From sequence record PP925845.1: a stretch of DNA of 51,510 nt, one strand, 5' to 3'. Shown here piece after piece: positions 28,183-29,533 of the stretch. The position numbers and the translations under genes were made by a program. Source of the stretch: Escherichia phage BananaBelafonte. Position 1 is the stretch's first letter; each line of letters opens with the position of its first letter. The notes below the pieces were generated by a model. That model had not been told where the DNA came from, ran no database searches, and saw nothing but the letters and a program-made list of their open reading frames with translations.

Positions 28183-28214
28183 AAAAAAGGCTCCCGATTG
28201 GGAGCCTTTATTTT
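28183..28214. terminator. bidirectional intrinsic terminator between J gene and convergent minus-strand cluster
   Basis: AAAAAA, hairpin GGCTCCC-GATT-GGGAGCC, then TTTATTTT; A-run and T-run flank the stem. Confidence 0.75.
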
Positions 28215-28545
28215 ATAGCTGTGCAACTTTTATATCTTGTTTCATAAATCTGTTAGGCTGGCGAGCCATAAGATTTTGCTCAATGCCGCCCTTTTCAAAT
28301 TTCATGTTGATATTGTATTTCCCATCGTCTTTGTAACACATCACGCTAACGTTGCGTTTTACGTGACGCGCGAAATAAAAGTGATCGGCATTGATAACTT
28401 CGATTTCCTTGTTCTTGCAATCAAGCGTAAATTCAACGCTTCCGTGAATACTCATTCTCGCCGCCTCGCCTGGGTAGCCGATTTGCATATTTAACGCAAG
28501 GGCGTTAGACGCAAAAATCATTAAAGAAAGAATAAACCAACGCAT
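28213..28545 (-). CDS. secreted small protein (111 aa, cleavable signal peptide), function unknown
   Basis: ATG (rc) at 28545 preceded by AAGGAG; N-terminus MRWFILSLMIFASNALA resembles a Sec signal peptide; two Cys in mature part; ORF-track start 28716 overlaps the upstream gene. Confidence 0.5.
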   Translation of the reverse strand: MRWFILSLMIFASNALALNMQIGYPGEAARMSIHGSVEFTLDCKNKEIEVINADHFYFARHVKRNVSVMCYKDDGKYNINMKFEKGGIEQNLMARQPNRFMKQDIKVAQL

Positions 28546-28555
28546 AATTTGCTCC

Positions 28556-29206
28556 TTAGTTGTAACCCTGGAATTTAGCCAATGGGAGGCGGAAGTTTCC
28601 GCGTCCGTTAAATACTTCTGTGAATGTTCGCTGATATTTCGACACGTAACCGAATTGCATTTGTGATCCCGTCCACTTAATGCAAAGGCCGGAGTAGCCG
28701 ACCACCTCGCCATCATCGGACAGGTTGCCAGGGCATTGATTCCAAAGGAAAAACGGGTTAAACCCTGGCGTCATTGTGTACACGTTAGCATTCAAATTGT
28801 AGTTTTGCGCAATATCAACATACTTCATGATGCGCGGCATTGTTGCGGCACTCTTTGCAGACCAGATTAATTTGCCGTTTGCGTCGAATACATCCAGGAA
28901 ACCGGACTCAATCGCCTTGTTTCGCGTCGTCCTGATAACTCTGAAAGTGCCAGGCTTAAACATACTGGCACCAGGGAAGCACCACGCATTATTGACCGTA
29001 AGTTGCACCCAATATAAATAATCTTGCCTCTTTGACCAGTTGTAAGCCGTGAATCCCAACTCCTTTAAATTTCCGAATGGCGTTGTTTGGTTGTAAGCCC
29101 CAACCTCAACAATTCCAGGTGTGTCTACGGCATCAAATAGCGTATGCACCTGACTGGAATTAATGACCGATGCGCCGTCATTATTAAAAACCTCAAATCC
29201 TGACAT
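28556..29206 (-). CDS. hypothetical protein (216 aa) in AT-rich accessory cluster
   Basis: ORF with GGGGGA RBS, coupled to the upstream 105-aa gene; no recognisable catalytic motif. Confidence 0.5.
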   Translation of the reverse strand: MSGFEVFNNDGASVINSSQVHTLFDAVDTPGIVEVGAYNQTTPFGNLKELGFTAYNWSKRQDYLYWVQLTVNNAWCFPGASMFKPGTFRVIRTTRNKAIESGFLDVFDANGKLIWSAKSAATMPRIMKYVDIAQNYNLNANVYTMTPGFNPFFLWNQCPGNLSDDGEVVGYSGLCIKWTGSQMQFGYVSKYQRTFTEVFNGRGNFRLPLAKFQGYN

Positions 29207-29215
29207 GCTTCCCCC

Positions 29216-29533
29216 TTATATAAACTGGTAAACCTCAACCGTTAAGTTTTGCGCGTAGTAGGTATTTCCGGTCGGCAAATACAAAATATCTACGCCATTC
29301 GTTTTCGTCTTTGCGTAAAACTCAAGGAATATTAATCCCGCTGGTGAATCGGTCGAAGTTATCGCGGCGAATGAGTTGTTGCCGTTGATACCGTTCACCG
29401 CAAAAGACACGACGTTTTTTCCTGCTGGGAAGTTGACCGTATGCTTAGAGACAAACTTCACCGTGTAATCACCGAGATCAACAACCAGGTTTCCGGCCTG
29501 ATCCCACGCTTGCAAACCCGCTGGCATAAGCAC
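29216..29533 (-). CDS. hypothetical protein (105 aa) in AT-rich accessory cluster
   Basis: ORF with AAGGAGG RBS downstream of a conserved module in the AT-rich control region. Confidence 0.45.
   Translation of the reverse strand: MLMPAGLQAWDQAGNLVVDLGDYTVKFVSKHTVNFPAGKNVVSFAVNGINGNNSFAAITSTDSPAGLIFLEFYAKTKTNGVDILYLPTGNTYYAQNLTVEVYQFI

Follow-up and report, generated by a model that had tools for sequence, protein, structure and literature searches.

The window analysed here is the whole 51,510-nt stretch of DNA from Escherichia phage BananaBelafonte (PP925845.1), a T1-like siphophage of the Drexlerviridae. Three open reading frames, of 103, 216 and 110 aa, lie on its minus strand between the plus-strand gene for gpJ and the recombination genes recE, erf and ssb, which begin at 30033, 31170 and 31867 on the plus strand. 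gpJ itself (24609..28181, 1190 aa) is a J-like central tail fibre or tip attachment protein, as indicated by the Pfam models FNIII-A_GpJ, Phage-tail_3 and Phage_Tail_Tip and by PHROG 31 ('central tail fiber J'). We refer to the three minus-strand genes as A103 (29216..29527), predicted to encode a small beta-sandwich co-receptor-binding or adaptor protein; B216 (28556..29206), the predicted main receptor-binding protein (RBP); and C110 (28213..28545), a putative superinfection-exclusion factor that would be secreted to the periplasm. The coiled-coil part of gpJ contains two direct repeats (27303-27326 and 27402-27425, spacing 99 nt, 92% identical), which encode ...NESEARA... heptad-like segments.

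The three genes are tightly coupled, as a preliminary description of this DNA had stated: the intergenic gaps within the cluster are 9 and 10 nt, and every gene has its own Shine-Dalgarno sequence. Of the protein sizes given there (105, 216 and 111 aa), only the second stands. The first gene starts at an ATG that yields 103 aa, the same start as in its homologues and in the annotation of Klebsiella phage vB_KM5a1-KLB26 (hereafter KLB26), while the alternative GTG at 29533 (105 aa) falls within the GGAGG Shine-Dalgarno sequence; the third protein has 110 aa, or 111 codons when the stop is counted.

The cluster is convergent with gpJ, and a hairpin at 28186..28209, with a 10-bp stem (six GC pairs), a 4-nt loop and T-runs on both strands, separates the two stops (gpJ at 28181, C110 at 28213). 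This is the bidirectional intrinsic terminator already postulated for the two transcription units; in an Rfam scan of 28000-30200, the only matches were sub-threshold and all fell on this hairpin. The reported AT-richness is also real: the GC content of the cluster is 44.9% versus 49.4% for the window, which corresponds to the 3rd percentile among 1321-nt windows, and the 15 such windows with the lowest GC begin at 28501-29201, covering the cluster and the adjoining spacer.

Upstream of A103, at 29557..29600 on the minus strand, lies a promoter-like module of the form AGCAC-N5-GCTAAA...TG-TATAGT. Its elements are AGCAC at 29597-29593, TTGCTA at 29589-29584 and TG followed by TATAGT at 29562-29557, so placed that the module sits 30-70 nt 5' of the ATG, with the ribosome-binding site GGAGG at 29537-29533. 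The preliminary description was correct that a conserved module is present, but it is not the cluster's own: when aligned with 17 other copies in the window, it keeps the invariant positions. At least 18 copies occur in the window, all intergenic, with plus-strand copies starting at 1218, 1535, 2638, 3179, 3829, 4825, 6143, 10317, 40947, 41276, 42431 and 42759, and minus-strand copies ending at 18674, 29600, 47741, 49854, 50343 and 51139. The phage-wide consensus is AAATAGCAC-N5-G(C/T)TAAAAC, followed by about 18 variable nt, a TG-TATAAT-like element, about 25 nt, and the ribosome-binding site with the ATG; in many copies, the variable part forms an inverted repeat, rich in GC, that surrounds the -10 hexamer. 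Because the conserved upstream element is about 22 nt from the -10 hexamer, too distant for a canonical -35, the module looks like an extended -10 promoter combined with an upstream regulator site or UP-like site, and the same distance accounts for the failure of a sigma-70 consensus scan to pick up the copy upstream of A103. Since this is the phage's general promoter, it does not mark the cluster as a foreign insert. We infer that A103, B216 and C110 form one operon, running from a standard phage promoter module to the terminator held in common with gpJ.

The 499-nt spacer between this operon and recE (29534-30032) has a GC content of 35.3% and lacks any ORF of at least 40 aa. It has TA-repeat palindromes at 29677-29711 and is the most diverged stretch in the comparison with KLB26 (57-87% identity versus about 97% in the flanks). 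The E. coli phage PHB17 has an additional 104-aa ORF at this position.

Over about 12 kb (22100-34371), the DNA is 95.4% identical to that of KLB26, and the A103, B216 and C110 proteins are 100% identical to their KLB26 counterparts: in the three genes together, we counted 29 synonymous and 0 non-synonymous differences. In comparison with PHB17, dN/dS is 0.12 for A103 and 0.05 for B216; C110 is the fastest-evolving of the three, with a dN of 0.33 against 0.09-0.14 for B216 and A103. This pattern of substitutions indicates that all three are genuine genes, and purifying selection acts on each of them as judged from the same alignments.

Standard domain searches say little about what these genes encode. 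Scans of the three proteins against Pfam, NCBIfam and PADLOC returned nothing usable, the PHROGs matched are exclusively families of 'unknown function' (PHROG 25729 for C110), and phmmer and profile searches of A103 and B216 against PDB sequences gave no meaningful match. Furthermore, the three genes are annotated as 'hypothetical protein' in every GenBank record that our searches returned. The Pfam accession PF28254 is precomputed on all 78 database homologues of B216; it is absent from the Pfam copy that we scanned, and thus appears to have been catalogued recently. For many of the B216 homologues, the gene lies on a chromosome of Enterobacter, E. coli, Kosakonia or Cronobacter, presumably within a prophage.

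Homology to phage genomes is far more informative. Using tblastn, we obtained 58 matching phage records for B216, 55 for A103 and 43 for C110, among them IME347 and IsaakIselin (Bas10). These two phages carry homologues of all three genes between gpJ and recE, in the order found here and with similar sizes (101-103, 216-217 and 110-112 aa), and the similarity extends over the full length of each protein: A103 is 50.5% and 41.7% identical to the IsaakIselin and IME347 homologues, respectively, B216 is 55.8% and 56.5% identical at 100% coverage, and C110 is 29.1% and 41.1% identical. The third protein of these loci, like C110, has an SPase-I type signal peptide and two cysteines. At 42-50% (A103), 56% (B216) and 29-41% (C110) identity, however, the cluster described here is a diverged allele, and its carrier is most similar to a Klebsiella phage.

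[quoted passage not shown] Four RBP families, for FhuA, BtuB, LptD and YncD, have been confirmed there in a 2026 preprint, in which membership in the YncD family is defined by more than 30% identity over more than 99% coverage (bioRxiv 10.64898/2026.04.02.716166). B216 falls within this family (55.8-56.5% at 100% coverage), the cluster is directly downstream of gpJ and before recE, erf and ssb, and homologues of the proteins named RBP-2 and SIP-1 in IsaakIselin accompany B216 in the expected order. On these grounds of homology and position, the cluster is the Drexlerviridae receptor-binding-protein locus in its PqqU/YncD allele, a divergent member of a module that is already described.

Accordingly, the preliminary description guessed well in associating the position downstream of J with host range, receptor blocking or superinfection exclusion, but its proposal of an undescribed accessory system does not hold. 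The locus is published (PMC8594841; bioRxiv 10.64898/2026.04.02.716166), its homologues have been modelled as RBP-1, RBP-2 and SIP-1 (PMC12124388), and A103 and B216 are clearly homologous (42-56% over the full length) to putative tail-tip RBPs, whose own structural role is predicted. A horizontally acquired accessory, defence or anti-defence system would fit the GC content, which is below that of the flanks, the lack of Pfam and NCBIfam hits and the 'hypothetical protein' annotations. Nevertheless, homology, synteny and the literature assign the cluster to the RBP locus, transcription would use the phage's standard promoter module, the single PADLOC match is at chance level (E 0.014, 12.6 bits), and low GC and mosaicism are expected of a frequently exchanged RBP cassette. 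We consider such a system extremely improbable, and a defence or anti-defence function was for practical purposes rejected on the basis of the homologies to the RBP locus.

The receptor assignment draws on genetic work with related phages. PqqU is the new name of YncD, the TonB-dependent importer of PQQ (PMC12124388), and IME347 and IsaakIselin serve as the reference for dependence of phages on YncD; infection by IsaakIselin requires PqqU, does not require TonB, and is inhibited by PQQ. In Klebsiella sp. M5al, pqqU was an RB-TnSeq hit for both KLB26 and KLB19, and deletion of pqqU conferred resistance to KLB19; the knockout was plated with KLB19 only, so that the evidence for KLB26 is the screen hit (bioRxiv 10.64898/2026.03.14.711032). 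The B homologue of KLB19 is 56.7% identical to B216, and is thus as diverged from it as are the RBPs of the E. coli phages. Dependence on PqqU/YncD has therefore been demonstrated genetically for phages with homologous modules and, as a screen hit, for the phage with the identical module. The RB-TnSeq preprint (bioRxiv 10.64898/2026.03.14.711032) places KLB19 and KLB26 in the Straboviridae and calls pqqU a PQQ biosynthesis gene; in contrast, the KLB26 record (GenBank PP556865) is assigned to the Drexlerviridae, and PqqU is a TonB-dependent importer. Read together with the RBP locus, the pqqU hit of that preprint identifies the outer-membrane receptor of the phage.

From this similarity, PqqU/YncD is the predicted receptor of BananaBelafonte. 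The same architecture could instead serve a different outer-membrane receptor, such as another TonB-dependent transporter: B216 is no more than 56% identical to the RBPs of the phages proven to require YncD, its most variable segments (approximately residues 26-75 and 135-150) could be receptor contacts, and exchange at the Drexlerviridae position is known to switch receptors. We regard this as improbable, as KLB26, with identical A, B and C proteins, gave pqqU as the outer-membrane hit in Klebsiella, KLB19 was resisted by the pqqU knockout in spite of a B homologue only 56.7% identical to B216, and the rule of more than 30% identity over more than 99% coverage correlated with the receptor in a study of 255 phages. 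The last 100 aa of J are conserved in 1690 phage records, too widely to reveal co-inheritance with the type of locus.

How A103 and B216 might engage PqqU is suggested by published AlphaFold2 models, in which RBP-1 (QXV80560) and RBP-2 (QXV80561) of IsaakIselin, the homologues of B216 and A103, respectively, form a heterodimer on the open extracellular face of PqqU, while SIP-1 (QXV80559), the homologue of C110, occupies the periplasmic face (PMC12124388). SIP-1 carries a signal peptide and is described as similar to the C-terminus of TonB, with a Foldseek match to TonB; all of these complexes are AlphaFold models only (PMC12124388). B216 appears to adopt the fold of an RBP of solved structure, and A103 resembles the distal domains of phage fibres and tailspikes. 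A and B are most likely tail-tip proteins that bind PqqU (YncD), with gpJ as the presumed anchor for the pair.

Gene context in other phages argues for a structural role of A and B. In the lambdoid phage HK639, J, A and B follow one another in that order, co-oriented and with overlapping codons, and the C homologue is on the opposite strand. The Acinetobacter N4-like phage XC38 has, behind a tail protein gene, an ORF in which residues 28-58 match the N-terminus of A, and then a clear B homologue (E 6e-17). In the Pseudomonas phage DEV (Schitoviridae), gp56 ends in a J-like C-terminal region, to which the C-terminal 200 aa of J are similar (30% identity over 233 aa, 37% over 84 aa). Next come gp55 (99 aa) and gp54 (223 aa), a match in size and order to the 103 and 216 aa found here, and the hairpin-like motifs at the N-termini are alike. 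The virion protein gp54 has been identified genetically as the RBP of DEV, whereas gp55 is a proposed adaptor whose detection in virions is uncertain; gp56, gp55 and gp54 have been modelled with a stoichiometry of 3:1:1. The two loci differ in gene orientation: in DEV all three genes run the same way, with overlapping codons, and here A103 and B216 are on the strand opposite to J. The DEV receptor is LptD, and no exclusion gene has been described there. At the sequence level, hhalign did not establish homology to the DEV proteins: A103 aligned with gp55 over the N-terminal 31 residues alone (E 2.7e-4, probability 42%) and B216 with gp54 over 15 residues (probability 2%).

These comparisons also bear on whether A, B or both are assembly chaperones or tail-fibre assembly factors for J and not RBPs of the virion. 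A103 is small, and the function of its putative counterpart gp55 is undefined in DEV, where its presence in virions is uncertain. However, B216 appears to adopt the fold of an RBP of solved structure, suppressor mutations map to DEV gp54, which is a component of the virion, AlphaFold2 puts both IsaakIselin proteins at the surface of PqqU, and the Pfam, NCBIfam and PHROGs searches revealed no resemblance to Tfa-type chaperones. An assembly function is therefore highly improbable, and a Tfa-like chaperone was considered and rejected for A and B.

In AlphaFold2 models, A and B have N-terminal hairpins at matching positions, which may represent a common docking motif. BLASTP found no such relationship between the two proteins, hhalign of A residues 1-30 against B residues 1-29 gave a probability of 1.8%, and a regular expression for the motif was uninformative.

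RBPs of the LptD type allow a more distant comparison. The present cluster shows no sequence homology to the RBP of Oekolampad (PDB 9rpt chain C) or to Rtp44; identity to RBP_Oeko is 6%, with no profile hit. RBP_Oeko consists of one chain of about 309 aa, in contrast to the 103 + 216 aa over which the function would be divided here; its receptor, LptD, is not a TonB-dependent transporter; and Rtp45, the exclusion partner of the LptD-type protein Rtp44, is a lipoprotein of about 6 kDa that acts by steric displacement inside LptD and is not TonB-like. Tentatively, and conceding that the odds are somewhat against it, we propose that the PqqU-type A+B pair, the LptD-type single-chain RBPs of small siphophages and the gp55-gp54 pairs of N4-like podophages might have arisen by divergence from a single ancient, exchangeable 'J-tip' cassette with a common fold, docked by J-like N-terminal hairpins, in which the exclusion partner of the present allele would be a secreted mimic of the TonB C-terminal domain with soluble and lipoprotein forms. 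If true, this would contradict the current view that the RBP families of the Drexlerviridae are unrelated.

The third protein, C110, has a signal peptide of 17 residues (nt 28545-28495; MRWFILSLMIFASNALA|LN) with an A-x-A SPase-I site, and exactly two cysteines, C43 and C70, so that the Sec-type signal peptide and the two cysteines noted previously are both borne out. C110 contains no lipobox: the cleavage region reads ...SNALA|LN, and the first cysteine is residue 43. An exhaustive HMMER search of 1.8 billion proteins recovered only a small family (12 representatives at E<=0.001), in which P25, A28, R30, C43, C70 and Y71 are invariant; a protein homologue search with the mature C110 sequence gave no word-sharing candidates. 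As some relatives do contain lipoboxes (HK639, LVAGC; P0096; P0098), while C110 has an A-x-A site, the family is predicted to span soluble periplasmic and lipoprotein forms. In HK639, an unannotated gene for a 120-aa lipoprotein (MKLLFAAALLLVAGC...), a C110 homologue, is located at approximately 23535-23897 of HM208537.1 (L004 4900-5262, minus strand), where GenBank has no feature. It is convergent to the J-A-B genes of this temperate lambdoid phage, consistent with a Cor-like exclusion gene.

When the C110 family profile was searched against all PDB sequences at E<=10, seven of the eight hits were TonB C-terminal domains, with E-values of 0.064-0.62 and the same 52-60 columns aligned around a YP..A.R....G.V core, and hhalign of the family against the E. 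coli TonB C-terminal domain gave an E-value of 3e-4 and a probability of 39%. The Pfam TonB_C model had no hit among the 12 family members at E<=10. The family profile thus weakly corroborates the TonB likeness of SIP-1 that has been published on the basis of its fold.

C110 is most likely, by analogy with modelled SIP-1, a putative superinfection-exclusion factor that would block the receptor from the inside. Small exported partners of RBPs for TonB-dependent transporters are known from T5 (pb5 and Llp) and from T1 and phi80 (Cor), which use FhuA; Llp and Cor act on the periplasmic side of FhuA and prevent RBP binding by reverse allostery. C110 differs from the lipoprotein class of Llp, Cor and Rtp45 in lacking a lipobox cysteine in its signal peptide, and the possibility that it is a homologue of Cor or Llp was considered and rejected.

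A TonB mimic might, however, have a main role other than the exclusion of phages of its own kind. Transporters share TonB boxes, and through these such a protein could inhibit TonB-dependent uptake as a whole or keep out competitors that rely on TonB, both phages and colicins; the YP..A.R....G.V signature of the family and the alignment of its profile with TonB C-terminal domains in the PDB are compatible with this. Nevertheless, C co-varies with the A/B allele, its homologues having been found only in phages that also have a B216 homologue, usually adjacent, and its evolution is rapid (in the PHB17 comparison, dN is 0.33, and 0.09-0.14 for B and A). Both features suggest a partner specific to one receptor; in the published model, SIP-1 is docked on PqqU specifically, and the analogues Llp, Cor and Rtp45 are receptor-specific. 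A general role as a TonB mimic is hence unlikely.

Taken as a whole, the cluster is in our judgement very probably the terminal-receptor recognition cassette of a T1-like phage in its PqqU allele, in which A and B bind PqqU and C excludes superinfection. The three genes would be co-transcribed from the phage promoter module to the terminator held in common with gpJ. [quoted passage not shown] C ('SIP-1') would be exported by the Sec pathway, with C43 and C70 probably forming a disulfide, and would attach to PqqU from the periplasmic side, probably at the TonB box, most likely via its TonB-C-terminal-domain-like fold. PqqU would thereby be held in a state that the tail tip cannot bind, so that superinfection would be excluded and progeny would be spared adsorption to debris, an outcome analogous to that of Llp acting on FhuA and Rtp45 acting on LptD. 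Against this reading we weighed the divergence of the proteins (B 56% identical to the RBPs of the E. coli phages, C 29-41% identical to its homologues), the location of A and B, which are convergent to J and outside its operon, and the TonB similarity of C, which is statistically weak (E 0.06-0.6, probability 39%).

While this kind of module is already known from related phages, its recognition here gives functional names to three proteins annotated as 'hypothetical' in all records returned, and makes the terminal receptor predictable from sequence as PqqU/YncD, which is present in E. coli, Klebsiella and Salmonella; this may be of use in host-range prediction, the design of phage cocktails and receptor engineering. 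To the published description we add the match of A and B to DEV gp55 and gp54 in size and order, and the location of A and B after J in other phages. Two points are new as hypotheses for structural work: the fold link between PqqU-type and LptD-type RBPs, and the TonB-like signatures at the sequence level, together with lipoprotein variants, in the exclusion protein family.

Elsewhere in the window, an 878-aa ORF on the minus strand (34361-36997) contains a 63-nt (21-aa) repeat in six or more tandem copies at 36090-36530. This ORF may encode the lateral tail fibre, since KLB26 has a minus-strand gene annotated as 'tail fiber' in the syntenic region.
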